IMG/VR virus record: IMGVR_UViG_3300007616_000002 | Coordinates: 1-64,000 of that record | Strand: one strand, 5' to 3' | Origin: a virus | Length of the DNA stretch: 64,000 nt | Shown here: positions 2,460-60,693 of the stretch, piece after piece | Layout: each line of letters opens with the position of its first letter | How positions within the stretch are numbered: the first letter of the stretch is position 1 | Made by a program: the position numbers and the translations under genes | The notes under the pieces: generated by a model | Databases searched by the model: none | What the model was told of the DNA's origin: nothing | What the model saw: only the letters and a program-made list of their open reading frames with translations

Positions 2460-3368
2460 ATGCGCTACTCCGACGAGGACCTGAAAGAGATGGTCCAAGA
2501 AGCAGAAGACCGGTTAGACAGGTTGACTACTACTTCTTTCGACCAAATAGACGATTTCTGTACGAGCAAATGCGTTATTAATAGGTTCGGTAGTTGGGAA
2601 GCGGCTAAGTTCGAAGCTGGTGTTATTGAAGACGTTGAAAAATGTCCAAAGTGCGGTAAAGTTTTGAGACAATTTGGGAACCATTGGAGAACATCTTGTG
2701 GGTATCCTGAGATACCCGACCGAAAGTGGAATATGTTCATCGGATTACTGATGGGTGACGCGAGCGTTCAAGGGGATGGATACGAAGAAGCAAAGAACGC
2801 TAACATGAGAATTTATTCCTCTAACAAGAAGTTCTTAGAGTGGCTTGACGGAGAGATGGGTGTCTTTACAACTAACGTCAACTTGAACGACACGGGTGGT
2901 GACAGACTCTTACGGAATCAAAAGTCGGGATTCGACAACCGAAAGGAGGCCGACTACTCAGACATGTACGTGTTGAACACACGGGCAATGCCCTGCTTCA
3001 CGGAACTCAGGGTGTGGTACGATAGCGGGAAAAAGAAGTTCCCCAAAAGTCTTGAGTTGACAAAAGAGGTGGCGAGGATGTGGTTTGTCTCCGATGGAGG
3101 GTTGAATTGGCAGGGTGAAAGGTACACAAATCCCACCGCTCAAGCCGAAATAGCGTCCGTGAACGAGTCCGAGAGACCGGAAATGCTAGTCAGCTTATTC
3201 GAAGACCACGGCTTCAACCCCACCTTCGACGGGACAAGACTGCACTTTAACAGCCAGACAGAGGATTTTCTTGAGTGGCTTGGTGACCCCGTGCCCGGAT
3301 ACGAGTATAAGTGGGAAACGAAAAACCGAGACCGATACAAAGAACTCTATGAAACGGCATACAACTAA
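2460..3368 (+). CDS. free-standing LAGLIDADG homing endonuclease with N-terminal HEG-associated repeat and Zn finger
   Basis: RFGSWEAAK repeat, CPKC, two LAGLIDADG-like motifs (IGLLMGDA; WFVSDGG). Confidence 0.85.
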   Translation: MRYSDEDLKEMVQEAEDRLDRLTTTSFDQIDDFCTSKCVINRFGSWEAAKFEAGVIEDVEKCPKCGKVLRQFGNHWRTSCGYPEIPDRKWNMFIGLLMGDASVQGDGYEEAKNANMRIYSSNKKFLEWLDGEMGVFTTNVNLNDTGGDRLLRNQKSGFDNRKEADYSDMYVLNTRAMPCFTELRVWYDSGKKKFPKSLELTKEVARMWFVSDGGLNWQGERYTNPTAQAEIASVNESERPEMLVSLFEDHGFNPTFDGTRLHFNSQTEDFLEWLGDPVPGYEYKWETKNRDRYKELYETAYN

Positions 3369-12058: not shown

Positions 12059-12148
12059 CTAATTTTAGAGGGCATCTCCGGTAGCGATTAGTACCTTGCC
12101 AACACCACTCCCACAAACTTTAATATCCCCCCGACACTTGTGTTGGAT

Positions 12149-13042
12149 ATGAGCTTCATGGATACACTCGCTCTGCCCTCGGAGATGACAAAACGCGACC
12201 ACTGGATTGTCTGGAAGGTTGATACACGCAACGGGAAAGAAACGAAAATTCCCATCTCGCCGCACACACGACAGTTCGGTAAAACTGACGACCCCCAGAC
12301 GTGGGCAACCTACGAGAAGGCTTCGAAGCTCGTTAACAAGAAGCCCCAGAAGTACGGTCTCGGATTCGTTTTCACCGAGGACGACCCGATAGTCGGAATC
12401 GACCTCGACCACGTTCGTGAGCCCGAGACGGGTCGTGTGACGGACGAGCGAGCCAAGGACATTATCAACACTCTCGACTCTTATACTGAGATTAGCCCGT
12501 CCGGTGATGGGTATCACGTCATCGTCAAGGGTCGTATGCCCTCGGGGCGTAACCGAAAGGGTGAGATAGAGATGTACGACTCTGGTCGATTCTTCACCGT
12601 CACTGGTAACCGAGTCCCGGGGACAGAGCCCGAAGTCAAGAACCGCGACTCGCCGCTTCGCGTGATTCACAACAAGTACCTCCGAGAGAGCATGACCCAG
12701 CAGACTCAGAGTACTACCAACGTAGGTGACCCTGAGATAGAACTGGACGATAACGAGGTCCTCAAGAAGGCCAAGAACTCCAAGTCTGGAAAGAAGTTCG
12801 AGGCGCTGTGGAACGGTATCACCTCGGGTTATGATTCACACAGTGAGGCTGACCTCGCACTCTGTAGCTATCTGGCGTTCTGGACTGGTGGAGACAAGAA
12901 CCAGATGGACGACCTCTTCCGTAAGTCTGGTCTCATGCGACCGAAGTGGGACAACCAACACGCTTCGGACGGGGATACCTACGGCGACCTCACCATTCAG
13001 AAGGCGATTCGAACATCCGATAGTTTCTACGGGCAGAACTGA
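12149..13042 (+). CDS. primase-polymerase (AEP, NrS-1-like)
   Basis: GIDLDH, YTEISPSGDGYHV, EMYDSGRFFTVTG, HSEADLALC..LAFWTG. Confidence 0.9.
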   Translation: MSFMDTLALPSEMTKRDHWIVWKVDTRNGKETKIPISPHTRQFGKTDDPQTWATYEKASKLVNKKPQKYGLGFVFTEDDPIVGIDLDHVREPETGRVTDERAKDIINTLDSYTEISPSGDGYHVIVKGRMPSGRNRKGEIEMYDSGRFFTVTGNRVPGTEPEVKNRDSPLRVIHNKYLRESMTQQTQSTTNVGDPEIELDDNEVLKKAKNSKSGKKFEALWNGITSGYDSHSEADLALCSYLAFWTGGDKNQMDDLFRKSGLMRPKWDNQHASDGDTYGDLTIQKAIRTSDSFYGQN

Positions 13043-13408: not shown

Positions 13409-14587
13409 ATGAGTTTCCGAGACATTGCAAGCCAAGGCGCAGTTGACAGTCGAGAAAACAACGCAGATGATTCCGAAGATGACGGGCAGTCCGTCGAAGA
13501 CTACGGCATCGACGTAGACTTCGATGAAATTGCCTTCGTCCGATGTTCGCCCACCGTCTTTGTGACGGGCGTGTTCCCGAACGAGGACGAGGGTAACCCC
13601 ATCATCCGCTTCAAGAACGCGGACTACAACGACGGTCGATACGACCAAGGGTACCTCGGGCTGGTCATCGAAGACCCCGAGCCCATCGTCTCCGAAGACG
13701 AGGGAACTGGTGGCACTGTCATCCTGAAGACGGACGACCAAGACTCCACCGACTACCGAATGTTCGACTCCAACGACGACGAGACGAAGGTCGTGGAAGG
13801 CATGGGTGTCAAGTTCGGCAACAAGCTCTACGAGGGCGAGGTCCTCGAAGAGTTCTCCGAAGACCGTATTCTGCTGACGGTCAGCGGTGCTTCGTCCAAG
13901 AACGTGGCCCGTCGCCTCGACAAGAAGGGCGCTCTCGTGGCTGGCATGGACGAGGAGAACGGTGGCGTCAACGACGGCCTCATCGAGTACAAGCCCTACG
14001 ACCAGCGAGAAGACGGTCAGAACGAGGTCACGTCGCGCTACGCCCGTGACCCCGAACTCAAGACTGACCTCCACGAGACCCGTGTGGGCCTGTTCCTCGC
14101 CCGTCGTGAGGAACTGGACGACGAGAACACTGGCTACCTCGGTGCCGAAGGGCAGGGTCAGGAAGGAGACGGTCGTATTCCCCTCCTCGGGGAAGCACCT
14201 GACGGTGTGGACACGCACGCAGACCCCGATGAGGCCTCCTATGCGGAACTGGTGGCTGACGACAACCGTGGCGAGCGACCGATGTACTGGTACGTCGTCT
14301 TCAACGTCGAGGCCGAGGAAGAAATCGAGATGGAAGAGACCGACGACGAAATCGTGGGCTACTCGTGGCTCGATGACGACTGGGACCAGTTCGACCCGAG
14401 CGTCGGCGGTATTCCCGACGACCAGTGGGAGTTCGTGGAGCACTTCGTGGAGATGGTCGATGAAGGTGAAGTGACTGACACCTCCGAGGAGAACATCATC
14501 GCAAACATCGAAGACAACGCCGATGCCTTCGAGAGCGAGCCTGAGACGGACTCGATGGTCAACGCGATTACGAACCGCGTCGAATGA
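13409..14587 (+). CDS. highly acidic, codon-optimised protein (possible ssDNA-binding/replication factor)
   Basis: 392 aa, strong GC3 bias, tandem promoters, downstream T-tract; function guessed from context only. Confidence 0.8.
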   Translation: MSFRDIASQGAVDSRENNADDSEDDGQSVEDYGIDVDFDEIAFVRCSPTVFVTGVFPNEDEGNPIIRFKNADYNDGRYDQGYLGLVIEDPEPIVSEDEGTGGTVILKTDDQDSTDYRMFDSNDDETKVVEGMGVKFGNKLYEGEVLEEFSEDRILLTVSGASSKNVARRLDKKGALVAGMDEENGGVNDGLIEYKPYDQREDGQNEVTSRYARDPELKTDLHETRVGLFLARREELDDENTGYLGAEGQGQEGDGRIPLLGEAPDGVDTHADPDEASYAELVADDNRGERPMYWYVVFNVEAEEEIEMEETDDEIVGYSWLDDDWDQFDPSVGGIPDDQWEFVEHFVEMVDEGEVTDTSEENIIANIEDNADAFESEPETDSMVNAITNRVE

Positions 14588-14943
14588 GCGACTACATCGT
14601 CGTGAGTGAGTACGGAACAGAGTACTCCACGCCGATGACACGACAACACGCCGTGGCAAAGGCCAACTCGCTCAACTGGTCAAAGATGCACGAAGCATCT
14701 GAAGCAGAGGCAGTCGAGGCCGAGTAAGGCTCCACTTGCGTTTTTTTTTTTGAGCAGATTACTTTCGATAGCGATAGCTATTCAGCCTTGACAAAGTTAC
14801 AGCAAGTAAACACACTGCGCTTCTTCTTATTGCACTCTCTTTCTTCATCTATCGCCACGAGATGTTCACACTTAACTTTAACCCTACCTGTCCTTGATTG
14901 CCGGAAGATTTAAGTCCCACCCGACACAACTCAAGGATGAAAG

Positions 14944-15843
14944 ATGGAAACGTATCCCAAGTTACGCTATCCCGGGGAAGAGGCCACACAAGGCCTGTTC
15001 GCCAGTGGTTCTATTGTTATACAGGAGAAGTTAGATGGTTCGAACTTTCGGTTTACGTGGGAACCCGATACTGGATTCACGTTCGGGTCTCGGCGGACTG
15101 AAGGAGAGGGTCTTCACCGTGACCAGTTTGCCGACGCTATCGAGTACGTCGAAGAGAACGTCAGTGAAGTCGAGCTACGGAGCCAGCACAACGAGTTCGG
15201 TAAGCTAGTCTACTTCGGTGAGTTCATGAACCCGCATACCATCTCGTATGACTGGGAGGGAACGCCCGACTTCATCGGCTTCGACGTATGGTCTGAGGAC
15301 GCGCAGAACTTCCTCACAACGGGTCTTGTCCAATCCCTGTTCGATGGCCTCGACCTTCCCACTGCGCCGATTGTGACGACTGTGAGCGCCGATGAGTGGG
15401 ACGACTACGACTTTGAGTGCCCCGAGTCCGAATACTACGACGGAAAGGCTGAGGGTGTGGTGTTCAAGAATCATACGACCGACACTTACGGAAAGTATGT
15501 TCGAGAAGACTTCAAGGAGAAGAGCAAGCAGACCTTCGGACCCAGCAAAAAGTCCTCACTCAACGATACGGAGCGAATGGTCTACGCCTACATCACCGAG
15601 GCCCGTATTAGGAAAGCAATATATAGGCTTCAAGATGAAGAAGGTAAAAAGATTAGAATGGAGATGATGGCTGAAGGACTTCCGCAAGAAGTTATTTCGG
15701 ATTTTGTAGATGAGGAAGGGTTTAACGTGTTTATGAATGAGAATTGGAAAATAGGAATTGGAGAATTCCGGTCAATAGTATCTAGTAGATGTGCTGAAGT
15801 TCTTCGTCGTGAAGTAGATAAAAAAGTGAAGGAGGAGCTATAA
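14944..15843 (+). CDS. ATP-dependent RNA ligase (Rnl2-like)
   Basis: QEKLDGSNFR, FGSRR, FGEF, FIGFDV, EGVVFK, KYVREDFKE nucleotidyltransferase motifs. Confidence 0.85.
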   Translation: METYPKLRYPGEEATQGLFASGSIVIQEKLDGSNFRFTWEPDTGFTFGSRRTEGEGLHRDQFADAIEYVEENVSEVELRSQHNEFGKLVYFGEFMNPHTISYDWEGTPDFIGFDVWSEDAQNFLTTGLVQSLFDGLDLPTAPIVTTVSADEWDDYDFECPESEYYDGKAEGVVFKNHTTDTYGKYVREDFKEKSKQTFGPSKKSSLNDTERMVYAYITEARIRKAIYRLQDEEGKKIRMEMMAEGLPQEVISDFVDEEGFNVFMNENWKIGIGEFRSIVSSRCAEVLRREVDKKVKEEL

Positions 15844-16646
15844 TGCCTATAAAAATAACTTGTGATGAGTGTGGGGATGAATTTACTGTTCCACCCTCGA
15901 ATTCCGAGCAGAAATATTGCTCTCGTGAATGTTATTTATACAAAAATAATCCTAATAAAGAAGAAAAAGTTTCAGTCAATTGTGACTGGTGTGATAGTAA
16001 TATCCAAAGAATACCGTCATTAGTAGAACGAACAGAAAATAACTTTTGTGACCAAAAGTGTTCTTCCAAATGGAGGTCTGAGAACTGGACTGGTGAACGT
16101 TCACCGACATATAAAGACGCATCTGTCGAATGCACGTGTGAATGGTGTGGTTCAGATTATGAAGAATGGAGTACTCGAAAAGAACGTACTCGATTTTGCT
16201 CTCTTGAGTGTCGGAATAAATGGCAATCTTCACGTGATGGACCCGAGCACCCACTGTACAAAGGTGGTAGAAAAGAATTTGGTGAAAATTGGAAAGAAAT
16301 GAGAAGAGAAGCATTATCACATTACGGAGAAGAATGCAGTCTATGTGGAGCAGATTCATCTAATTCACTGATTGATGTTCATCATATAATACCAAGATGG
16401 CTATGGGACAATGTTGATGATGCAGACAAACTATGGAATCTTACTCCACTTTGTAGGTCTCACCATATGAAAGTTGAACGCCAAACTGAGAAAGTTATTG
16501 AGAAAATGGCCAAAGAGGAGGCCGAGAATATCTTCATGGAGGAGAACTGGGAAATCGACACGGGTGAAACACTCTCCATCGTCTCGAACCGGTGCTCCGA
16601 GGTCCTGCGTCGGATGATTGACCAGAAAATCAAGGAGGAGCTATGA
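15843..16646 (+). CDS. HNH homing endonuclease with Zn-finger repeats, fused to a displaced ligase C-terminus
   Basis: Repeated CxxC...FCS..C, DVHHIIP...NLTPLCRSHH; AT-rich; last ~45 aa resemble the ligase C-terminus. Confidence 0.88.
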   Translation: MPIKITCDECGDEFTVPPSNSEQKYCSRECYLYKNNPNKEEKVSVNCDWCDSNIQRIPSLVERTENNFCDQKCSSKWRSENWTGERSPTYKDASVECTCEWCGSDYEEWSTRKERTRFCSLECRNKWQSSRDGPEHPLYKGGRKEFGENWKEMRREALSHYGEECSLCGADSSNSLIDVHHIIPRWLWDNVDDADKLWNLTPLCRSHHMKVERQTEKVIEKMAKEEAENIFMEENWEIDTGETLSIVSNRCSEVLRRMIDQKIKEEL

Positions 16647-16906
16647 GTAGCCCTGTAATTTGTGAAGACTGCGGAAAGCGGGTCTCTATCTGTGCTGTCT
16701 CAACTGAGTCAAAGGAAGAATACAAGAAAAGCTACGGCGGATTCGTCCAGTCAAAAGGTGAGCGTGTGTCGGTGAGACTTGGCCTCGCCTGTGTTTGTAC
16801 GGTCTACACCGGGCATAAATTGAGATATGAAGGGCTAGATTCGGGAACATTCAAAGAGAAACCCGAGAAGTTCCCGGAAAATTGGATTAAGGTGAAAGAT
16901 GACTAA
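16643..16906 (+). CDS. small Cys-containing hypothetical protein
   Basis: ATGA-coupled; CEDC, CVC. Confidence 0.55.
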   Translation: MSSPVICEDCGKRVSICAVSTESKEEYKKSYGGFVQSKGERVSVRLGLACVCTVYTGHKLRYEGLDSGTFKEKPEKFPENWIKVKDD

Positions 16907-17288
16907 AGAGTACACCATCGAGGTTGATGTGGATGGGGAGCCCACTGAGGTAACCCTCTCTCAGCCCCAAGGAATAGAGTTTATGCACATAGTGGCGACG
17001 ATGCCCGATAGCTTCTCTGAAATGGGGCCTGAAATTGACCTTGATTCAGATGATGTTGATTGGTTACAGGCCCTTCTGGAGGTTACAACAGACCTTAGCC
17101 GCCGTGAGATACAATCTGGTATCTCTGTCGAAGACCTCAATAAACTAATTGGTGCCTCAGCAGAAGTGTTCGCAGGTGAAGAACCTAGCACACCCAGCGA
17201 TAGTTTTCGAATAGAACGGTCTGAAGGACCGTTCGAGGCGTTTGAGCTTGACAGTGATGGGTCTGTTGACACGGATGAGTGGCGATGA
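16899..17288 (+). CDS. hypothetical protein
   Basis: Acidic, overlapping operon gene. Confidence 0.65.
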   Translation: MTKEYTIEVDVDGEPTEVTLSQPQGIEFMHIVATMPDSFSEMGPEIDLDSDDVDWLQALLEVTTDLSRREIQSGISVEDLNKLIGASAEVFAGEEPSTPSDSFRIERSEGPFEAFELDSDGSVDTDEWR

Positions 17289-17695
17289 GTGAGACCACCC
17301 AGTGCCCTCTTGAAGGTTTGAAAGAAGATTCAGATGGATGTGATGGGCAGGCAAATCTACTGTTTGACGGCTCGTTGTACTGTCCAACATGTGAAAACAT
17401 GTTTGAAACAGAGTACACCCTTCGGGACGAAGATGAGAATATGTATGCAGAAGAAGTTCGAGACCTTCTGGAAGAAGACGCTGAAGTAGTGTATGAAGAG
17501 TATATCCGACTACTCGACCTGTATTACAAGAAACCTTTAGGATTCCCCGATGAAGGGCTGTATCAACGCTTTCAGTGCATATTTCCTCTGCTTATTGTAA
17601 AATATATACAAACTATGAAATCGTACCAAGAGGAAGTAAATCGAGAGATTAGAAACCAACTTCGGAGACAATCAATAAATAAAAAGACAGTTTGA
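17285..17695 (+). CDS. Zn-finger hypothetical protein
   Basis: CP...C...LYCPTC. Confidence 0.6.
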   Translation: MSETTQCPLEGLKEDSDGCDGQANLLFDGSLYCPTCENMFETEYTLRDEDENMYAEEVRDLLEEDAEVVYEEYIRLLDLYYKKPLGFPDEGLYQRFQCIFPLLIVKYIQTMKSYQEEVNREIRNQLRRQSINKKTV

Positions 17696-17719
17696 CTACG
17701 AGTTTGTTAAGAAGAAAGG

Positions 17720-17735
17720 TTTAAGTACCACCCGA
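17720..17735 (+). promoter_or_regulatory. representative viral promoter TTTAAGTACCACCCG (dozens of copies)
   Basis: TATA + CC(A/C)CCCG also at ~387, 1936, 5418, 8432, 10484, 11592, 12119, 14908, 23360, 25546, 27767, 38969, 46914, 47863, 53083. Confidence 0.85.
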
Positions 17736-17752
17736 GACTATTTTCGGGCACA

Positions 17753-18211
17753 ATGAACGACGAAGAACGAATTGATGCTGTTTTGAGCGCGGTGGCAAAC
17801 GTGCTCCTCGATAAAGGTGATGGGTATAGCGTCGGCCAATTGGTGGCTGACCTCGAAGGAGATGGAAATACACATGAGTCTGACCCGTACCACGTGTGGG
17901 ACCGGCACTTCCTTCAAGACATGGAGAAGCAAGCTACTGAATGGCGAGACGAGCCCCGTGACTTCGAAGAGGTAGAGAGTCTCATGGACGCCTTCTACGA
18001 GTACTGGTCCGAAAATACGGAGAAGAAATTCTGCCAGATTGTATGCATGGCACACGCTATCGAGAATGGAATTAGTGGATATAATGATGAATCTCCGTAT
18101 CAGGAACCGATAGATAATCTTGGGGATGACCAGTTACGACGGTATCTAAACAAGCGCCTCGAAAAAGAGGACTTCGAAGTTGAAGCCGCGGAGGCTATCA
18201 TCAATGAGTGA
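17753..18211 (+). CDS. hypothetical protein
   Basis: Leaderless ATG after promoter TTTAAGTACCACCCG. Confidence 0.7.
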   Translation: MNDEERIDAVLSAVANVLLDKGDGYSVGQLVADLEGDGNTHESDPYHVWDRHFLQDMEKQATEWRDEPRDFEEVESLMDAFYEYWSENTEKKFCQIVCMAHAIENGISGYNDESPYQEPIDNLGDDQLRRYLNKRLEKEDFEVEAAEAIINE

Positions 18212-19103: not shown

Positions 19104-19592
19104 ATGAAGTTCAATCAGACCAAGAAGTCTATTGCTGAGAGAACTCGGACGACCAATCACGAGGGTGGGGAGGCGTTCGAACCCGAAGATGTTCGACTTG
19201 GGCTTTATAAAGTCGTTATCAACAATCTTCTTGAAGACTCGTTCTACGAGTCCGACGAGGAGAGCTTTGACAAGGTGAAGTCACGTTTTGAGGAGTGTGT
19301 CATCGAGCACCCCGAGTTCGTGCTGAAGCTCGCCTACTGGGCCCGTGAAGAGGCGTACCTTCGGCAGATTCCCCAGCTACTGCTCGTGTTTGCGGCTAAC
19401 AACGAGCACACGAAGGGGTACGTCCGTGAGTACTCTACTGGAGTCATGCAACGGGCTGACGAGCCGCTGGAGGTGCTTGCAATGCAGGTGGAACTCTTTG
19501 GGACGAGTATTCCGAACCCTCTCCAGAAGGGTATCGAGGACGCACTGCACACGTTCGATGAGTACGAAGTGTCAAAATGGGATACAGCATGA
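19104..19592 (+). CDS. TROVE/Ro60 N-terminal half
   Basis: TTNHEGGEAF, DSFYES, PEFVLKLAYWAR...LR, QRADE, IPNPLQKGI...FDEYEVSKW. Confidence 0.9.
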   Translation: MKFNQTKKSIAERTRTTNHEGGEAFEPEDVRLGLYKVVINNLLEDSFYESDEESFDKVKSRFEECVIEHPEFVLKLAYWAREEAYLRQIPQLLLVFAANNEHTKGYVREYSTGVMQRADEPLEVLAMQVELFGTSIPNPLQKGIEDALHTFDEYEVSKWDTA

Positions 19593-20374
19593 GCTGGAAT
19601 AAAGTTTCCAAGTCAGAGTGTACCGGTGCTCTGGTTCAGGCGAAGCAGGAGTTGGGTGAGTCGCCCAGCGTGTCCCAGTACCGTGAGTTGGACCTACAAC
19701 CAACAGTCTACACCATGCAAAATAAATTCGGTTCGTGGAACAAGGCGAAAAGGGCCGCTGGCCTGCAAGCTTGCACCAACCGTGTTGTGAGTGATGACGA
19801 GATAAGCATTGCCATCAACCTGTACGCAGGTGGACTGTCAGTCCGGGAGGTTGCTGATGAGTTAGAAGTCCAACCACAGACAATCCATTACCACCTTCAG
19901 AATGAGGGGGTTACCGAGTCCATCTCTGAGGCTCTAAAAGGACGTGACCATAGCTGGGGAGACAAGATTTCGCAATCTCTGGAAGGTCATGAGGTTAGCG
20001 AATCAACTCGTGAGAAGATTTCAGAGACCCATACCGGGAAAGAGCCTTGGAACAAGGGAAAAACGAAGAAATCCCACCCAGACGAAATCGACTACGGGCG
20101 CTCAGGTGAAGCGCACCATGCTTGGAAGGGTGGTATTAGTAGTGAGTTGAACCGACTGCGACAAACACCTGAGTACAAGGAATGGCGTAAGTCAGTGTTC
20201 GAGCGTGACAACTGGACATGCCAAGATTGCGGTCAGAGAGGCGGTGAATTGAACGCGCATCATATCAAATCATTTGCGGAGAACGAAGACCTTCGGTTTG
20301 ACGTAGATAACGGAGAGACACTATGCAAGGAACATCATATCGAGCGACACATGACGGAGGAGAGAAATGAGTAA
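19589..20374 (+). CDS. HNH homing endonuclease (HEG repeat + HTH + NUMOD3-like) splitting TROVE
   Basis: KFGSWNKAK, HTH, REKISETHTGK, WRKSVFERDNWTCQDCG..LNAHHI...NGETLCKEHH. Confidence 0.9.
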   Translation: MSWNKVSKSECTGALVQAKQELGESPSVSQYRELDLQPTVYTMQNKFGSWNKAKRAAGLQACTNRVVSDDEISIAINLYAGGLSVREVADELEVQPQTIHYHLQNEGVTESISEALKGRDHSWGDKISQSLEGHEVSESTREKISETHTGKEPWNKGKTKKSHPDEIDYGRSGEAHHAWKGGISSELNRLRQTPEYKEWRKSVFERDNWTCQDCGQRGGELNAHHIKSFAENEDLRFDVDNGETLCKEHHIERHMTEERNE

Positions 20375-21374
20375 CAAGAGCCGTGAGTTCAGCTACCGAG
20401 ACCTGATGAATCTCGTCCATCCCAAGCCCCGAGACGACCTTCGGAAAGAGCTATTCAAGCGGATTGCACTCGGTGAACTGGACGACCACCCCGAGGTCGA
20501 GCCGCTGAAACAGCACCGGACGTGGGAGGATACCATGTCGAACGACGATGACGACCGCTCGGAGGCAGAAAAGTTCCACGACCGGCTAGACGATATGGGC
20601 CTCTTCGCCAAGATTCGGAACGTCCGGAACATGCTTGAGGCTGGGCTGGAGCCCGAGGTAATCCTCACAGACGAGGACCTCGATTCTGTTCCCCACGTCA
20701 AGCTGTTCCCGTTCCGCTTCTACCAAGCGTACAAGGCTGTAAAAGACGCTGGGTACCGCTCGACGTATCTCGATGTGTGGTTCGAGAACGCCATCGACCG
20801 GTCTGTCGAAAACGTTCCCGAGGAGTTCGGAGACACCTATGTAGCGGCTGACACCTCCGGGTCGATGACGTGGACGCCCATCTCCGATAACTCGGACCTT
20901 ACCCCGATGGAGATAGGGGCGCTCTTCGGCGCTGTGTGCGGTTCGAAGGGCGCAAAGGTGTCTGCCTTCGCAAGTACCCACGAAGACGTTCAGTTCCACG
21001 CTGGCGAGCCTGTGCTCTCGATTCAGGACCGCATCAAGGAGGCCCCCGCAGGCGGCGGGACACACGGGTACAAAGTTCTCAAGACACTCCGTCAACGAGG
21101 AGAGAGTTGGGAGAACGTCGCACTCTTCACGGACACCCAACTTTGGGGCGGCTCGCTGAAGGAGGAGTGGGACAAGTACATGCAGGAGGTCAATCCCAAC
21201 GCGAGCCTCTACATCGTAGACCTCGCAAGTTACGGCGACCTCGTGGTTCCCGAGGGGTACGATTCGGTCTATCGAGTGTCGGGTTGGAATGAGAACATCG
21301 TAAAGCACATCCGGTACGCATCGGAAACGGATGCCGCGATTCAGGAAGTCGAATCTGTCGGCTCTCCTGAGTAG
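20367..21374 (+). CDS. TROVE/Ro60 C-terminal half with vWA domain
   Basis: RDLMNLVHPKP, TWE, IRNVRNM, FPFRFYQAY, MIDAS DTSGSM, GGGT, FTDTQ, VSGWNE. Confidence 0.9.
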   Translation: MSNKSREFSYRDLMNLVHPKPRDDLRKELFKRIALGELDDHPEVEPLKQHRTWEDTMSNDDDDRSEAEKFHDRLDDMGLFAKIRNVRNMLEAGLEPEVILTDEDLDSVPHVKLFPFRFYQAYKAVKDAGYRSTYLDVWFENAIDRSVENVPEEFGDTYVAADTSGSMTWTPISDNSDLTPMEIGALFGAVCGSKGAKVSAFASTHEDVQFHAGEPVLSIQDRIKEAPAGGGTHGYKVLKTLRQRGESWENVALFTDTQLWGGSLKEEWDKYMQEVNPNASLYIVDLASYGDLVVPEGYDSVYRVSGWNENIVKHIRYASETDAAIQEVESVGSPE

Positions 21375-43324: not shown

Positions 43325-43907
43325 GTTCATAAACCCTTTGAATCCGGAGGTACTTAAACCTTTCGGTTGCTTTCACCCACTCAGAAAAGGGTGAACAAAC
43401 ACACGCCGTGCATCGCTCACTGTGTTTACTTTCTCCGTAAAGTTTAAGACCCTCCCGGCTATACGTTAGGGTAGAAACAATGAATCCGGAAGAGTACATT
43501 GTCAAGATGGAAGAAGGCGAAGAACGAACTGTTACCGCAAAGAGTCACGACGTTGCGGGTGGGCACGATTTTGTGTCCTTTTACAACAAGCCCGAGGGCG
43601 GCGAGGTAGTCTACTTGGTCGAGCGGTACCGAGTTCAGGAAATTATCCCTGTCGAGGGAGGCTCTTCTAACGTCGAAGAAGCCCGAGTGTAATGTCTGAG
43701 GACGCTAACATCCTGCCTAACGGGGGTGAAATACACTTCAACGACGGTAGAGATATGCGAGTTGCTGACCGTGTGGTGCTCCTCGACGGCTTCGTGAAGA
43801 CCATCAACAAGAAGACGTACCAGCTAAACGTCTACCCCTCGGAGGTTGTTGAGGGTGTTTACACTCATACGAATCACCTTGAAGACGAGGAGTGGTGGTG
43901 ATTTGAC

Positions 43908-45197
43908 GTGAGTGAAAACTCAGTCTATCTGGCTGGCCCCATCCAACACGCCGACAATCATGGGACGAACTGGCGCGAGGAGATTCAAGAAGTTTATCCT
44001 GACCGATTCGATTGGCTTGACCCGCTGTCGAAGTATGACCCCACCGACCCGAAGGTGGACTTTTACTTCGATGAGGATGACCGAGACGACCTCTATGAAC
44101 TGAAGACCCAGACGGCCGATGATGGCTCAAACAAGTATGTCACACCCACGGACATTGTGGAAGGTGACAAGCTCGTCATCGATGAGGCTGATGCCATTCT
44201 TGTTGGTTGGTCGGTAGAGCAAGATTCAAGAGTAACTGATTCAAAGACTTCTGACATGAAAGTATGTCCTGAATGTGGCGAAGAAAAGAAGCTCTTAGCC
44301 AAACATATTCAAATGAGTGGGTGTTCATGGCCCAAAATTCCTGAACCCGATGTTGAGGCTATTGCGGGGATGGTTCTTGGCGATGGCTCAATTAATAACC
44401 GGGATGGTCTCCCCCGACTTGACATTAGTATGATTTCGGGGAAGTTTTTGGAGCATCTGTATGACCGTTTTGGGGTTTTATCTGCTGGATTGAAGGTTAA
44501 GAAAACGGCCTCGGCTCAAGCAGTATCGCATCGTGAAAGTGGTTTCAATCCGGGCGCAGAGGCGTCGGAATATTCTGACGTGTATCGCTATTGGACAATT
44601 GGGCATCCAGTTTTTGAAGAATTTGCGTCTTGGTATGGACCCAATGGAAAGGAGATTCCAGACGTTTTCAAATTGACACCTGAATCGGCCCGATATTGGT
44701 ATGTATCGGATGGTGGATTAAATTGGAACAAGAAGGCATCTCGGGCGTATGTTCAGATTAGTAGTGTTGTCGGTGCTTCAGACGAACGACTTGAAGAGTT
44801 ATTTGATGAGGTGGGATTCTCTCCCAATGTTGGGAATGGGGCTGTTCAGTTCTCCGTCGAGGAGTCAGAGAAGTTCCTTGATTGGATTGGTGACCCGTTA
44901 CCCAACTTCGAGTATAAATGGGAGTATAAATCGTTCAAGCAGTATGAGCGTGCAAAACCTTTGACCAAAGTTAGCTCAGCGGGGACCCCGATGGAGGTCA
45001 TGTATCAGTACATGTTGAACGAACTTCACCCGCATCGAGAGCACGTCCCCATCGTGGTGTGGTGGATTGATGGTGAATACTCCAACAGCCACCTCTCACC
45101 GTGGATGGAGTATCACGCTGACCGCATAGAGTTCGACCGAGAGGATGCACTCAACACGCTAGAGTTCACACTCGAATCTGACGTGATTGTCGAGTAG
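43908..45197 (+). CDS. nucleoside 2-deoxyribosyltransferase-like protein with an in-frame LAGLIDADG insertion
   Basis: VYLAGPI..WR..DPL..IVEGDKLVIDEADAILV [CPEC, GMVLGDG, WYVSDGG] SSAGTPMEV. Confidence 0.8.
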   Translation: MSENSVYLAGPIQHADNHGTNWREEIQEVYPDRFDWLDPLSKYDPTDPKVDFYFDEDDRDDLYELKTQTADDGSNKYVTPTDIVEGDKLVIDEADAILVGWSVEQDSRVTDSKTSDMKVCPECGEEKKLLAKHIQMSGCSWPKIPEPDVEAIAGMVLGDGSINNRDGLPRLDISMISGKFLEHLYDRFGVLSAGLKVKKTASAQAVSHRESGFNPGAEASEYSDVYRYWTIGHPVFEEFASWYGPNGKEIPDVFKLTPESARYWYVSDGGLNWNKKASRAYVQISSVVGASDERLEELFDEVGFSPNVGNGAVQFSVEESEKFLDWIGDPLPNFEYKWEYKSFKQYERAKPLTKVSSAGTPMEVMYQYMLNELHPHREHVPIVVWWIDGEYSNSHLSPWMEYHADRIEFDREDALNTLEFTLESDVIVE

Positions 45198-54357: not shown

Positions 54358-54672
54358 TCATCCGTCGAGTAACTCGTCCTCTGTGTACTCGTAAGCTTGC
54401 TCAAACCCACCGGGTAAAATCGGCTTGTTCGAGTGGGCGTATCTGTGCTTTTCCGAGCCACAGAACCTGTTTTCGTAGAAGTCAGTAGAAATTTCATCAG
54501 TTGGGTCACGGTCGGCGCTAAGCGCGTGTTTATCCTCTCCCCGAAAAACGCGATAACATACGTCGCAGACTAACTCGTGTGTGTTGACCCATAAATCACC
54601 TTCTTCACAGTTTGGACATTCGCCCTCAGTTACGTCGTAGTTGTCGTCCTTGAGACTCATGGTCACTGCCAT
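54358..54672 (-). CDS. TFIIB-type Zn-ribbon small protein
   Basis: CPNC...ELVCDVC. Confidence 0.6.
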   Translation of the reverse strand: MAVTMSLKDDNYDVTEGECPNCEEGDLWVNTHELVCDVCYRVFRGEDKHALSADRDPTDEISTDFYENRFCGSEKHRYAHSNKPILPGGFEQAYEYTEDELLDG

Positions 54673-55415
54673 TATGCATCGTCCACACCAGCTTCAACGA
54701 TTGATTCGAGGTCCTCGTTCATCCCTTCACGCAGGTCTGCGAACTCTTCGAACATTTCTTCGGGAGTCTCGAACCACTCGGGTGAGCTACTGACTTCCCA
54801 CGTCTCTGAGTCTGGGTGCATCTTGATGACTTGACACTGGTCAATCTCGATATTGACAGCGTTCTTGTACGCAGTCAACTGCATTTTATGCTTGTCGTAG
54901 ACCCGCTTGCTAGTCTTTAAATCTGCCAGTGTCACCTTTCCGTCCTTGTCGATGTAGAGCATGTCAAATTGACCTGCATATCCAAGGCTCGTATTCTGGA
55001 CGAAGCATTCAACGTCGAGAACAGAGTCATGGTTGATGCCATGTTTTGCCTTAATCTCTTCCCACGCTTCTTGTGCCCAGAATAGATTCGCTCGGTATTC
55101 TTGCCATGAACCGTAGTCTGTTCCTTTTTTGAGTTCCTGTTCAGCTTCCTCCTCGTTGTGGCCCCCAATATCTTCCTCGGCAAATGGGTCCAGAAGATGA
55201 TAGTGAATAAGGGTACCACGGTAACTTTTAAAATTCAAAATATTCCTCCAATGTGGTCGTCCGCCAGTTCCGTCGTTCCACTGCTTCCATTTCTTTAGCC
55301 CTTCAGGTGTCGGCTTAGTATCAAGTACTGTCGTAACAGATGGGAGGTACATTTCGTGTTCATCAGAAAAATAAACACGACCAACTCCCTCTAGTGTTCT
55401 TCGTTCTAGTCCCAT
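54672..55415 (-). CDS. PD-(D/E)XK exonuclease (phage/Cas4-like)
   Basis: PSVTTVL, RGTLIH, YAGQFD, LADLKTS, QLTAY. Confidence 0.88.
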   Translation of the reverse strand: MGLERRTLEGVGRVYFSDEHEMYLPSVTTVLDTKPTPEGLKKWKQWNDGTGGRPHWRNILNFKSYRGTLIHYHLLDPFAEEDIGGHNEEEAEQELKKGTDYGSWQEYRANLFWAQEAWEEIKAKHGINHDSVLDVECFVQNTSLGYAGQFDMLYIDKDGKVTLADLKTSKRVYDKHKMQLTAYKNAVNIEIDQCQVIKMHPDSETWEVSSSPEWFETPEEMFEEFADLREGMNEDLESIVEAGVDDA

Positions 55416-55469
55416 TTATGAGCGAAAGTTGAGTCGGGTGATACTTAAGTCTTTCGGTAAAGTAATATT

Positions 55470-56129
55470 TTACTCAGCCGGATGTGCGGGACACTCCATT
55501 CTCTCATTTGATTCGGCTTTAATATGACAAGATTGGCATAGTACTACTATATTTAGTTGGAAGTTAGAATCTTCAACGGTGAAATATTCACTCTGTATAA
55601 ATGCTCTTCTGGGCAAGATGTGATGAGCGGAGAGCCTTCTACCGTTTTCCTCTTCTGTTTTCCCGAAGATTTCACACTCTCCTCCGGCACGCTCCCATGC
55701 TTCTTTTCGAACATTTATCCAATTTGACCCAAATTGACGATATTTACCATTTCGGTAATTAGGGTTGTCCTCACCGGACCACTTCCTTGCCCTCCAATCT
55801 GATGTACATTTTGTACTGCAAAATTGGCGCTCTTGGTCCTTTGTCCGAGACTTCATTTGTTCAAACTCTGTTTCACATTTTTCACAAGTTACCATGACTC
55901 GGTTATCGGACTCTCTGTATTTTGCTGAACAAGACCTATCACAAAATTTTTTCTTTTCTGAAGGTCTATACGATATTTCATTTCCACAGTATTTACAATT
56001 ATCTTTTATTAAATTCTTTTGAAATTCATCATGGCATTCTTTACTGCAAAAAAGGTTATTTGAGCGATTTAACTCATTTGGCTCACGATGTATTCCTTTA
56101 GAGCAGTGAGAACAATTAGCTTTGACCAT
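55470..56129 (-). CDS. free-standing HNH endonuclease with Zn-finger repeats
   Basis: Repeated CxxC..FCS..C; SAHHILP...NIVVLCQSCH; AT-rich. Confidence 0.85.
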   Translation of the reverse strand: MVKANCSHCSKGIHREPNELNRSNNLFCSKECHDEFQKNLIKDNCKYCGNEISYRPSEKKKFCDRSCSAKYRESDNRVMVTCEKCETEFEQMKSRTKDQERQFCSTKCTSDWRARKWSGEDNPNYRNGKYRQFGSNWINVRKEAWERAGGECEIFGKTEEENGRRLSAHHILPRRAFIQSEYFTVEDSNFQLNIVVLCQSCHIKAESNERMECPAHPAE

Positions 56130-56231
56130 ATTAAGCAATTCTTTTTATAACATATAAATCTTTCGCCTGAGTACGCTCCTTGGTAAAAAGTTACCGAAAC
56201 GTTTAAGTACTGCCCGGTACAAAAGGGGTAT

Positions 56232-56966
56232 ATGACGAACCTAACTGACATTACTGGCGTGAGCGAGTCTCGCGCTGATGACCTTCGTGAAGAAGACTTT
56301 GTGACCGTAGACGACGTTGCTAACGCAACTGAGAGTGAGCTTACTGAAGTCTCCGGAATCGGTGGCGCGACTGCCCCTGACCTCATTCAAAGTGCCCGAG
56401 ATGTTATTCGTGGTACTGTTGATGATGAAGTTGAGGAAGAAGAAACAAACACAGATGGCGATGCTGAGCCTGAAGAAGAGACTGAGGAAGAGTTCCCCGA
56501 CATAGATTCGACTACTGAGGAAGAAGAAGTGACTGTCGAAGACCTCGAAGAAGTTAATGGAGAAGAGCCGGAAAACGAGCCGGACGACGAACTGTCTGTT
56601 GAAAGTGACGACGGTGAACCTGAGAACGTGGATGTGACTCCCGAAAAGTACGATGTATCAATCGAACTGAAGAACGAAGAACAGTTCGACTATGTACTGT
56701 ATGCGCTCATTGACATGCGACTTGGCCGACTCAACGTCACCTACGAGCAGGAATCTATTTCAGTCGAACTACTAAACGAGTTCCGACCGCTGGGTGGCGC
56801 TGGGAGTGTCACTATCAGTCTAACAAGTGCAGAACTAAACGCACTTCACGCACTCCTAACACAGACTGCAACAGCGTATCAGGGTGAGAGTGCTGTCGAG
56901 GCGTTCAATGCAGTCCGAGAAGTAAAAAATCAGGTTCAGGATGCCCGTGAAGAGTACCTTCTCTAA
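56232..56966 (+). CDS. helix-hairpin-helix protein with acidic linker
   Basis: LTDITGVSESRA...LTEVSGIGGATA. Confidence 0.75.
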   Translation: MTNLTDITGVSESRADDLREEDFVTVDDVANATESELTEVSGIGGATAPDLIQSARDVIRGTVDDEVEEEETNTDGDAEPEEETEEEFPDIDSTTEEEEVTVEDLEEVNGEEPENEPDDELSVESDDGEPENVDVTPEKYDVSIELKNEEQFDYVLYALIDMRLGRLNVTYEQESISVELLNEFRPLGGAGSVTISLTSAELNALHALLTQTATAYQGESAVEAFNAVREVKNQVQDAREEYLL

Positions 56967-57744: not shown

Positions 57745-58224
57745 TTACTTCGTCACGTTCGACATATTCTTGCTTTCATCTATGTCAAACGTATTCTTTG
57801 CCCACTCTTTACCTTTCTGTGGGTTCCAGTCAACGCCGTTGTAATGGTCTCTGGGACGAACCCACGGATTCAACTCGTAGTGGGCCCAGACAGCTACACC
57901 ATCTTCATGCGGCCAGAGACGGACGTGATACTGGTACTCTCCAAAGAACCCGTTCGGGACATACGCATAGCTTGCACGCTCATAGACGCGCTCACCGTCC
58001 TGTGTCTCTCTCCACTTGAGTGCGGCGAGGTTCCGAGAGTAGACGTTCTCCATCGACTGAAGCTCTTCAACTACGTCTGCAACGGTTCGGTCAACAATTA
58101 CCCCTGTATAGGTTCGGTTTTGTCCCTTTTTGGAGAACATAATATCTTTTCCGAACCAAGATTCTTCATTTTGTTCAAATATTGGTACTACAATCCGACG
58201 GAAGGTATTAAGGTCAGGGTACAT
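57745..58224 (-). CDS. hypothetical viral protein
   Basis: QYHVRLW...WAHYELNPW..P..HY. Confidence 0.65.
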   Translation of the reverse strand: MYPDLNTFRRIVVPIFEQNEESWFGKDIMFSKKGQNRTYTGVIVDRTVADVVEELQSMENVYSRNLAALKWRETQDGERVYERASYAYVPNGFFGEYQYHVRLWPHEDGVAVWAHYELNPWVRPRDHYNGVDWNPQKGKEWAKNTFDIDESKNMSNVTK

Positions 58225-58228
58225 GCTT

Positions 58229-58921
58229 CTAAATTTGTACCCAACTACTTCCGTCCCAATATTGGACGTTAGATGGAATGTTCCCACTGCCGTATTTTAC
58301 GACTTTTTCGTTCCAAGAAGAACCATCGTAGATTTTGGCAACAAATGCTACCTGTATAGACTGTTCTGATGAAGATGCTGAACCTGCGGAATTATATACA
58401 TTTACTCGGTAATAGTTCGCCTTTCCGAGAGTTGGGCTAGAATCAGTGTACGAGGTCGAATCAGCCGAAATATCTGCTATTTGTGATAGTGAGCCACTGC
58501 TTGTACCACGGTATATTTTAAATCCACTTTCATTATCAGAATTATCACTCCACGTAAGCTCAACAGAGGTTGCGTCAGGCGATGAGAGTGATAAGTTAGA
58601 TGGAGCAGATGGTGGTGCTTTATCAGTACTAACTGTTATTACACTTGAATCAGCCGATTTATGCTCAGTTTTGGCAGTGACGTAGAAATCATACGTAGTG
58701 TCCGATGAAAGACTAGATACAGTATAAGATGTACTAGTTACATTTCCATCTTTAGTCCATGAAGAAGTTGATGATTCTCTATAATATATATCATATGAAT
58801 CAGCATCAGAAGAACCCCAATCTAAAACTACAGACGAAGAATCTTTTCCATCTTCGTGTAATGGGCCGGGAAAACTTAGGTCAGTAGTAACACTGACTTC
58901 GGTGGATAGGCTTTCAGTCAT
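58229..58921 (-). CDS. fibronectin type III repeat protein (C-terminal part)
   Basis: W...Y.IYY...TSYT...YDFYV and ELTWSDNSDNESGFKIYR FN3 repeats. Confidence 0.8.
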   Translation of the reverse strand: MTESLSTEVSVTTDLSFPGPLHEDGKDSSSVVLDWGSSDADSYDIYYRESSTSSWTKDGNVTSTSYTVSSLSSDTTYDFYVTAKTEHKSADSSVITVSTDKAPPSAPSNLSLSSPDATSVELTWSDNSDNESGFKIYRGTSSGSLSQIADISADSTSYTDSSPTLGKANYYRVNVYNSAGSASSSEQSIQVAFVAKIYDGSSWNEKVVKYGSGNIPSNVQYWDGSSWVQI

Positions 58922-59733
58922 TGGTCAGATGATGCTATTCTATAATAATATTTTTCTCCATTTGAAACTGTACTATCCGTGTAAGAGGTTGTATTTCCTT
59001 CAATAGAATCTATTTGAGTATAGTCACTTTGAGTTGAGCCAGAACTTTCTGAACGATATATATTGAATGAAGTAGCATATTCTGCATCCCAAGACAAATA
59101 TGAGTCATTGTTGCTAAGAGAAGCACTAACATTTGTAGGTTCAGATGGTGGTACAGTTTGAGTTATATCGTCAATATAATAGACCATATCACCATTATAG
59201 CTGGAAGATTCTATATAAATACTGTCTAATGTAAGTTCTTTATTAATACTTCCCATTGAATCACTATTCCAAATCTCACCCGTATCTTTTTCAATAACTC
59301 TTGCATCTAAAGAGTATCCGTCATCTGGATAAAACTCAAATTCTATTCTATATTCTACGTTTTCAGTGAGGTTACTAAATCCGAGAGAATCATACATACT
59401 ATCATACCAATAATGTACATCATCATCATCAATGGAAAATTCTAATTGATTATAATCCCCAAATACAAGTCGAAATTCGCCACCATTTATCTTTGTAAAA
59501 AGTATATCAAAACTAACTATTCCGCCTGCACTGGTATCAGGATAATGGAACGAAGCTGAAGATTCACTGTAAAGGTTGGCATCAGTAGATGATGTACAAG
59601 ATACTTTTAGCTGTTGGCTTCCATCAAAATAACCCCAATTACCTGTTTCTATGTTAGCCCCTACATAGTAGTCATTAACATCCCACCTATCAAGGCCGTT
59701 TTCAAAGTCTTCTATTATTTCTGTAATAGCCAT
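58918..59733 (-). CDS. putative adhesin: beta-sandwich plus FN3 (N-terminal part)
   Basis: AT-rich; PPSEPTNVSA...LSW...FNIYRS...TSYTD...YYYRI. Confidence 0.75.
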   Translation of the reverse strand: MAITEIIEDFENGLDRWDVNDYYVGANIETGNWGYFDGSQQLKVSCTSSTDANLYSESSASFHYPDTSAGGIVSFDILFTKINGGEFRLVFGDYNQLEFSIDDDDVHYWYDSMYDSLGFSNLTENVEYRIEFEFYPDDGYSLDARVIEKDTGEIWNSDSMGSINKELTLDSIYIESSSYNGDMVYYIDDITQTVPPSEPTNVSASLSNNDSYLSWDAEYATSFNIYRSESSGSTQSDYTQIDSIEGNTTSYTDSTVSNGEKYYYRIASSDQ

Positions 59734-59736
59734 AAT

Positions 59737-60417
59737 TTACGAAGTATCAATCCACACGTCGTTTGTACTTGGACTGCTCGGTGATGAAGACTGAACGAAT
59801 ATATTTGAGCCGTCTACACTATCAGCGTCAATTCCACCACCACTTCCTTCATCATTCTGTGTTAAAATGGGGCTTCCACCAGCAGTGGTACCGCTGTTCA
59901 GAGATGCTCCTGTAACAACATCGACCGATTCAGGAGCAACATCATGTGAAGATTTGTAGTGCTCATGTACAGCCTGTACTAGCTCCTCGTAGTTAGGACT
60001 CTCTCCAGTAAAGGAACCCTCATCTTCTCTTGCATACACTACATTAGAGTCTTCATTTTTCTCATGGACACACTGAGCACAGACTACTGTCTTTTGCTTA
60101 CCATTGATTTTGTTGTACTCTACGTACCCGTAACATCCATCATATTCTCCATACTCAACTACTCCGATGTACAGCCCGTCTTTAGTTTTAATACTAACAA
60201 CCGGGTCTACCAAGTCCCCAGAAACTTCACGGAGGACTGATTGAGCTTCCCATTCGTTAAGAGAGCATGTTTCTTTGATTAGCTCGACCGACTCCTGCTG
60301 TGTGAAAAGCTCTCCTTCATTTTCATGAAAGGCGTTTGCGGCATCCCGAACGTTCTGATACGTGAGTTTTCTCTCACTTTCAGATTGTTCAAGAATTTCT
60401 TTTGCGTTTTCTGACAT
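59737..60417 (-). CDS. tail-associated protein
   Basis: C-terminal DADSVDG...SPSTNDVWIDT fibre motif. Confidence 0.6.
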   Translation of the reverse strand: MSENAKEILEQSESERKLTYQNVRDAANAFHENEGELFTQQESVELIKETCSLNEWEAQSVLREVSGDLVDPVVSIKTKDGLYIGVVEYGEYDGCYGYVEYNKINGKQKTVVCAQCVHEKNEDSNVVYAREDEGSFTGESPNYEELVQAVHEHYKSSHDVAPESVDVVTGASLNSGTTAGGSPILTQNDEGSGGGIDADSVDGSNIFVQSSSPSSPSTNDVWIDTS

Positions 60418-60425
60418 ACTAACTT

Positions 60426-60623
60426 TTACTCTTCAGTTTCTTCTGCAAGCTCTTTGGCTTCTTCCTGCTGTTCTCGCTGGCGCTCTACTTGACGGTATGT
60501 ATCGTGTATAATCTCTTCAACCTCGTTGCGTAGCTGATTCTCGTACTGTTCTCCGAGCATTTCTGAAAGCTGTTCGTGTAGACCCTCGTGAAGACTCGAA
60601 ACGTTGACTTCAATTTTAGACAT
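60426..60623 (-). CDS. small coiled-coil protein
   Basis: Own promoter; acidic. Confidence 0.55.
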   Translation of the reverse strand: MSKIEVNVSSLHEGLHEQLSEMLGEQYENQLRNEVEEIIHDTYRQVERQREQQEEAKELAEETEE

Positions 60624-60693
60624 GGTTACGTAGTACTCTTGTTCTCTTTTTGAATCCGGTTACTTATAAATCTTTCGGTAGTGATTCTAACTA

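Follow-up and report, generated by a model that had tools for sequence, protein, structure and literature searches.

The RNA-ligase gene of a haloarchaeal tailed virus has had its 3' end replaced by that of a foreign ligase allele; a gene for a zinc-finger HNH endonuclease lies directly behind the new end, and part of the displaced old end survives, in frame, as the C-terminus of that endonuclease. This ligase-HNH cassette lies in a stretch of 64,000 nucleotides (hereafter the window), which comprises positions 1 to 64,000 of IMGVR_UViG_3300007616_000002, a 76.7-kb IMG/VR virus record. We consider it likely that the cassette is a homing-type mobile element, composed of a replacement ligase 3' end and a free-standing HNH gene, which entered the viral ligase gene from a foreign AT-rich donor allele. 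The type of layout is already known from the WHO elements of yeasts and from fungal mitochondria, and the ligase-HNH cassette adds a case from an archaeal virus.

The left junction of the imported piece emerges both from composition and from protein relationships. A two-change-point fit on third-position GC content (GC3) over 779 codons delimits an AT-rich island at 15604..16499, with 2-lnL ranges of 15598-15628 and 16455-16515 for its two edges, a GC3 of 0.26 within as against 0.60 outside, and a log-likelihood ratio of 44 as against at most 10 in 200 shuffles. This one island covers ligase codons 221-299 together with HNH codons 1-221 and is flanked by the GC-richer codons of the resident ligase and of the relic (GC3 by segment in Table 1). 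Further AT-rich islands exist in the genome.

The protein comparison rests on an alignment of 42 ligase homologues, the closest of which (69-57% identity) come from Logan assemblies and were compared as proteins only; here and below, P0002, P0003, P0010 and P0044 are Logan proteins and P0045 is a JGI protein, all compared at the protein level. Residues 1-220 of the window ligase are closest to P0002 (74% identity), with P0010 reaching only 51% there. Over residues 221-252 the ligase is 72% identical to P0010 and at most 58% identical to all others, and two indels are common to it and P0010 alone. A scan that uses the sites matching only one of P0002 and P0010, and is thus independent of composition, places the best breakpoint from P0002-like to P0010-like sequence at residues 220-226 (62:12 before, 5:18 after; Fisher p 8e-8), coinciding with the GC3 change point. 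A search with the tail-A region returned P0010 (72%) and P0029 (56%) only. The ligase is chimeric, with codons 1-220 resident and codons 221-299 from a donor. A preliminary description, made from the letters alone, had the ligase turn AT-rich at about 15607 and took its C-terminus to be supplied by an inserted element; the turn is confirmed by the fit, and the foreign origin by the HNH-like composition from codon 221 onward together with the switch of nearest relative. Its word 'recoded' is imprecise: tail A is no synonymous respelling but a diverged homologous end of a different ligase lineage, with 28 of 46 residues identical to those of the relic.

The host gene itself is in all probability that of an Rnl2-like ATP-dependent RNA ligase, judging by its nucleotidyltransferase domain (the PF09414 match spans residues 23-185), by the KxDG lysine K29 in EKLDG, which is invariant among the aligned homologues, and by a predicted C-terminal helical domain. 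In an AlphaFold2 model (mean predicted local distance difference test score, pLDDT, 86) the nucleotidyltransferase domain comprises residues 1-194 and is followed, after a disordered linker (197-203), by a C-terminal domain of five helices (208-298). The best fold matches of this model in the PDB are full-length T4 Rnl2; a PDB sequence search with the ligase found nothing. The imported piece would supply four of the five helices of the C-terminal domain, and tail A keeps 14 of the 16 well-conserved positions of the family.

The right junction lies inside the HNH open reading frame (ORF). BLASTP aligns the ligase with the HNH protein from C-terminus to C-terminus (32 of 59 residues identical, no gaps, E 2e-17), and a hidden Markov model (HMM) of the ligase tail, built from 23 homologues with the window ligase left out, matches HNH residues 215-267 (E 3e-24). 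Agreement of the HNH tail with the ligase family begins at position 254 (HNH M222, nt 16506); ahead of that point the near-invariant M242, L246, P247 and D253 are missing, and the relic therefore comprises 46 codons, not 59. A start of the homology at HNH residue 215, where the two proteins share 'VI', was rejected because those four near-invariant positions are not kept. Resident codons 254-299 survive as the in-frame end of the HNH ORF, and resident codons 221-253 are gone. In the AlphaFold2 model the relic begins midway through helix 246-265; the junctions thus do not coincide with borders between domains.

That these last residues are not an ordinary part of an HNH protein is evident from its relatives: among the best 150 of 7557 HNH relatives in a representative library, the match ends at query residue 207-225, the sole exception being a fragment of the window's own HNH protein. 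The tail, used as a tblastn query against annotated phage records, matched the RNA ligase of HGTV-1 and nothing else, and the tail HMM, run on 167 collected non-ligase proteins, matched the window HNH and P0044 only. The preliminary description had the HNH ORF end in the displaced ligase tail, fused in frame, with ATGA coupling to the next gene. The two C-termini that it quoted are present exactly as written, the fusion and the coupling can both be read in the sequence, and the displaced tail itself holds, residues 222-267 being ligase-like, encoded in resident-type codons and situated beyond the point where matches to the HNH family end. A public JGI/IMG protein of 115 amino acids, P0061, corresponds to HNH residues 153-267 (window 16299-16646); as it covers these residues only, at least one public gene call seems limited to the last part of the ORF.

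In the remainder of the ORF the nuclease motif is intact. Pfam reports HNH_2 above its cut-off (22.0 vs 21), HNH below its own (17.8 vs 21.4) and a treble-clef zinc finger, and in the alignment the invariant residues are intact, comprising the zinc-binding C165, C168 and C204 as well as H180, H181, N199 and H208. With its catalytic and zinc-binding residues conserved, the protein can be assigned, from its sequence, to the HNH endonucleases (PF01844/PF13391). Its nearest annotated relatives belong to the haloarchaeal tailed viruses HRTV-28, HCTV-1/5 and HVTV-1, where zinc-finger HNH proteins are common; that of the ligase is the RNA ligase of HGTV-1 (46% identity).

Table 1. Features of the ligase-HNH cassette and the adjoining gene (window coordinates).
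Feature	Coordinates	Strand	GC3	Details
Rnl2-like RNA ligase ORF	14944..15843	+		299 amino acids; PF09414, E 2e-21
Resident ligase 5' part, codons 1-220	14944..15603	+	0.68	Nucleotidyltransferase domain and start of C-terminal helical domain
Foreign ligase 3' end (tail A), codons 221-299 and TAA stop (15841-15843)	15604..15843	+	0.28	Delimited by composition change point and protein breakpoint
Tail-A coupling signal	15829..15845	+		13-base string with GGAGG (15831-15835), then TAATG (15841-15845)
Zinc-finger HNH ORF	15843..16646	+		267 amino acids; HNH_2/HNH at residues 165-210
HNH endonuclease proper, codons 1-221	15843..16505	+	0.25	Three CxxC...FCSxxC zinc-finger modules, then HNH motif at residues 165-212 (nt 16335-16478)
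Ligase relic (tail B), HNH codons 222-267 (ligase positions 254-299) and TGA	16506..16646	+	0.78	Start set by position-wise agreement with the ligase family
Native coupling signal	16632..16646	+		Same 13-base string with GGAGG (16634-16638), then ATGA (16643-16646)
Downstream gene	16643..16906	+		87 amino acids; coupled to relic stop; from ORF list

Two homologous tails 803 bp apart on one strand could also be read as an in-situ tandem duplication of the ligase end that diverged and received the HNH gene between its copies, or as a chimera of assembly. The observations already contradict both versions, to which we give next to no credence. Tail A has the composition of the HNH gene rather than that of the genome and is closest to a distant ligase, P0010; over the 46 codons of the relic the two tails agree at 59% of bases, and of the 26 codons with a shared residue and more than one possible spelling, 17 differ. 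Both junctions are bridged, with no differences in the cassette, by contigs of three soil-metagenome runs from three studies (spanning 15062-16030, 15257-16249, 15732-17300 and 16244-16917), and since these are independent assemblies the arrangement is not an assembly artefact.

Despite their divergence, the two tails end alike: 15829-15841 is identical to 16632-16644 within an alignment that is otherwise 59% identical. Downstream of the GGAGG in this string, TAATG forms the overlap of ligase stop and HNH start, and ATGA that of HNH stop and next-gene start; as both tails end in the same 13 bases, these overlaps link all three genes into one chain. The HNH-free ligases of HGTV-1 and of two IMG/VR contigs (L001-L003) have the same kind of ending, sharing GAGGAACTATGA and closing with ...GAGGA(A/C)CT(A/C)TGA, which overlaps the next start, so the last ligase codons double as the ribosome-binding site of the next gene. 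Of the six HNH-free loci whose ends were read, three have the ATGA coupling and a fourth ends in TAATG. From these sequences, the GGAGG of tail A would serve to start the HNH gene, and that of the relic appears to be kept for the 87-amino-acid gene. We considered the 13-base identity as a recombination junction and rejected it in favor of constraint on a ribosome-binding site, given that HNH-free ligases keep the same GGAGGA. No Pfam match was found for the downstream protein, and no homologue of it was detected downstream of other ligases; a bacterial promoter and terminator scan gives no information for an archaeal virus.

In P0044, the HNH homologue nearest to the window protein (about 45-50% identity, depending on the method), the shared ...VER.T.K... 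segment is followed by a 24-residue remnant matching the last ligase helix (residues 216-239, E 1.6e-6). P0045, the homologue next in line, stops directly behind the HNH motif and has no ligase remnant. The partial retention in P0044 of what matches the last ligase helix raises the prospect that selection maintains the ligase-like tail for a function within the HNH protein, for instance as a helix contacting the ligase or DNA, which would make it more than a passive relic. An open frame over 46 codons fits this proposal, as does the conservation of copy B, which keeps 10 of 16 conserved positions over 59 columns, with all misses except R276 preceding the relic. However, R276 is near-invariant in the family, and the relic has L in its place and T at F275 (EFRS changed to ETLS); P0044 has its segment down to 24 residues; none of the other HNH relatives among the best 150 of 7557 carries the tail; and an open frame would also be expected if the relic is young or if selection maintains the ATGA coupling to the next gene. 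We find the functional reading improbable. The loss of R276, the sole conserved position missing in the relic, suggests that this sequence no longer serves a ligase.

P0010 is itself a mosaic, being 85-95% identical to P0014 up to about residue 180 and 15-50% thereafter, with a switch to the tail-A type at residues 197-200 (p 3e-14). Taken with the breakpoint in the window ligase, this implies that one C-terminal module sits on two ligase backbones with different left breakpoints. More broadly, the C-terminal third of the viral Rnl2-like ligases is strongly mosaic, and residues ~197-235 occur in two alternative versions scattered through the family.

This general mosaicism also lends itself to another account, namely a one-off recombination with an AT-rich ligase-HNH relative, homologous at codon ~221 and illegitimate between the HNH 3' end and resident codon 254, in which the HNH gene was a passenger whose target may lie elsewhere or not exist. 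The island and the chimera do show transfer but not what catalyzed it, and the arrangement is rare, being absent from all eight accessible ligase loci (from IMG/VR, HGTV-1, Actinarchaeum, Nanosalina and Halosimplex, among others), each with a single tail and no adjacent HNH gene. Nevertheless, P0044 also has a ligase-tail remnant behind the same conserved HNH segment, and a second backbone bears the same tail module with a different left breakpoint; repeated, site-directed events fit these two observations better than a single accident, and we consider the passenger account unlikely, though less so than a functional tail.

Against the homing interpretation itself several points have to be set. 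P0002, the nearest relative of the N-terminal part, is 60% identical to both tails, so that tail identities at the protein level do not discriminate between them; the family-majority residue, likewise a protein-level measure, is matched at 35 of 46 positions by the relic and at 31 of 46 by tail A. The relic in P0044 is shorter, implying either a later deletion at the same junction or junctions that differ between independent events. In the three soil-metagenome runs we encountered neither a joint skipping the cassette nor an HNH-free variant, the material being contigs, which drop rare variants.

Close relatives of the locus were sparse in the collections searched. A megablast of 14000-18000 against phage records and a single-protein scan of IMG/VR gave no matches; alignment-based scans of IMG/VR and GTDB recovered ligases of at most 48% identity, none with an adjacent HNH gene or a second tail; and an HNH-alignment scan of IMG/VR recovered relatives of at most 39% identity. 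A metagenome scan with the three closest HNH proteins returned two loci, both irrelevant.

The preliminary description had proposed that the element inserted in the ligase gene by intron-less homing and brought with it a presumably cleavage-immune C-terminus. Overall, our results support this proposal, within which we infer cleavage, immunity to it, homing and the direction of transfer by analogy with known systems. Between 14800 and 17000 there is no match to any Rfam family (E up to 1), and thus no group I or group II intron. Nor are intein domains present, and with a stop codon between ligase and HNH gene the endonuclease is not one borne by an intron or intein. The gene order is that of a host gene followed by its element, with the HNH gene directly 3' of a full-length ligase gene, and as far as the sequence reveals the locus has the parts of the WHO and mORF kind: an adjacent endonuclease, a chimeric host gene and a displaced native 3' fragment downstream. 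The arrangement may recur, P0010 having the same tail module on another backbone and P0044 being an HNH protein with a ligase-tail remnant (both known as proteins only).

We posit that the element entered by double-strand-break repair or gene conversion from a donor allele. By analogy with WHO elements and mORFs, the HNH enzyme would cut element-free ligase alleles somewhere among the lost codons (~221-254). Repair on the left side would then use the full-length ligase gene of the donor, with a conversion tract of variable length (to ~221 here and ~198 in P0010), and the right end would pair with the ligase fragment behind the donor's HNH gene, such that the recipient's own tail becomes the new fragment. 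With 41% of bases different between imported tail and relic, the new allele is expected to be resistant to cleavage, and the ligase would keep its full C-terminal helical domain after the replacement. The GGAGG in the last ligase codons, native to the downstream gene, would be reused in tail A to start the HNH gene, and because read-through of the relic to ATGA preserves the coupling of the downstream gene, little polar effect is expected of the insertion.

The closest known parallel is the WHO elements of Torulaspora and Lachancea yeasts, each an endonuclease gene with an alternative 3' part of a host gene (Coughlan et al. 2020, eLife, PMC7282813; Osborne et al. 2026, bioRxiv 10.64898/2026.08.13.744650). 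In the homing model for these elements a naive allele is cut by the endonuclease. Repair of the left end uses the full-length gene of the donor, the right end pairs with the fragment that follows the donor endonuclease gene, and the recipient is left with a chimeric gene that resists cutting, the endonuclease gene and a fragment newly formed from its own former 3' end (PMC7282813; bioRxiv 10.64898/2026.08.13.744650). The anatomy of the ligase cassette matches this model part for part: the host gene joins its own 5' part to a donor 3' part, the two parts disagree in their relatives, the old 3' end follows the endonuclease gene, and neither an intron nor an intein is involved. However, the WHO enzyme is an HO-related, intein-like LAGLIDADG protein with a zinc finger, whereas that of the cassette is a zinc-finger HNH protein; the WHO elements target FBA1 on a yeast chromosome and occur as a cluster, whereas the cassette is a single element in the window, in an RNA-ligase gene of an archaeal virus. 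Furthermore, unlike in the WHO case, the reading frame of the endonuclease continues into the displaced end, which forms its tail and preserves the translational coupling to the next gene. Hence, on this analogy the cassette would work like a WHO element, and it is not a strict member of that class, as its enzyme lacks the LAGLIDADG type.

A comparable order, with an inserted foreign C-terminus followed by an endonuclease ORF and then the native C-terminus, is found in the mORF gene hybrids in the atp6, atp9, cox2 and nad3 genes of Glomus sp. mitochondria, in which the copies are ~60-80% identical at the DNA level and some parts are in phase (Beaudet et al. 2013, PMC3630166). A further such hybrid, in atp6 of Allomyces macrogynus, is known to us as cited in that paper (PMC3630166). 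The mORFs differ in using LAGLIDADG or GIY-YIG enzymes in organelle genomes, as opposed to an HNH enzyme in a virus, and those of atp6 and nad3 are in phase with the upstream gene, whereas in the cassette a stop codon separates ligase and HNH gene and the fusion is to the downstream relic.

Integrative elements that insert in the 3' ends of tRNA or protein genes also bring a copy of the displaced end, leaving the interrupted gene whole, but they use integrases, short attachment sites and near-identical duplicated ends. In contrast, the ligase cassette is without an integrase, its copies are 59% identical and the nuclease gene is its only cargo. Free-standing endonucleases of the T4 type sit between genes and are not known to leave a duplicated target end, unlike the cassette, which sits within the last quarter of a gene and carries a substitute end. 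What the cassette has in common with the intron-less homing of T4 SegF, SegG, SegB and MobE is a free-standing endonuclease gene adjoining its presumed target; these enzymes, of which MobE is an HNH member, spread by double-strand-break repair with co-conversion of flanking markers (reviewed in PMC2988022 and PMC2790892). We found no paper describing a 3'-end-replacing homing layout in archaeal viruses.

The same virus carries two more HNH genes. One interrupts the gene for a TROVE/Ro60 protein, whose two ORFs at 19104..19592 and 20367..21374 cover positions 51-156 and 273-360 of the TROVE profile and include a Ro60 vWA domain; it lies between them at 19589..20371 (HNH_repeat, NUMOD3, HTH and HNH domains) and is joined to both by overlapping stop and start codons. 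Unlike the enzyme at the ligase, where an end was replaced, this nuclease splits its host gene. The other is a second zinc-finger HNH gene of 222 amino acids (55470-56138, minus strand) in an AT-rich island (55001-56500, GC 0.37). It is a paralogue of the HNH gene studied here (27-36% identity), adjoins a PD-(D/E)XK nuclease gene (54672..55415) and has neither a ligase-like tail nor a duplicated neighbor end. The most AT-rich island of the window (58001-60700, GC down to 0.325) holds two adjacent paralogous ORFs on the minus strand (58232-58924 and 58921-59736; 41% identity over 79 amino acids), and another paralogous pair lies far apart on the plus strand (2460-3365 and 43902-45194; 35% identity over 241 residues). 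An NrS-1-type primase-polymerase, with a PF22763 helix-bundle domain (E 3e-30), is encoded at 12140-13042, 2 kb upstream of the ligase.

More tentatively, and with the balance of probability against it at present, we raise a wider possibility: that a zinc-finger HNH lineage of haloarchaeal viruses has specialized on codon ~253/254 of Rnl2-like ligases, usually dispensing with a stop codon of its own, reading through the remains of its target and reusing the target's ribosome-binding site twice. Such homing might drive the C-terminal mosaicism of the ligases, and tail replacement might be a general third route of homing, in archaeal viruses too.

The cassette adds an archaeal-virus HNH example to a mode of homing that dispenses with introns and inteins and that, in its 3'-end-replacing form, has been worked out experimentally only for the yeast WHO elements and described for the mORFs of fungal mitochondria. 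The case is unusually clean, combining two sharp, independently located junctions with an intact nuclease motif, an open relic and a reused ribosome-binding site of the target. It carries a warning for annotation, in that the last 46 residues of the 'HNH protein' are ligase sequence and P0061 covers only the last part of the ORF. It also offers a concrete substrate for mapping the homing site of an HNH enzyme in a haloarchaeal virus, and it may explain why the C-terminal third of the viral RNA-ligase family is mosaic.

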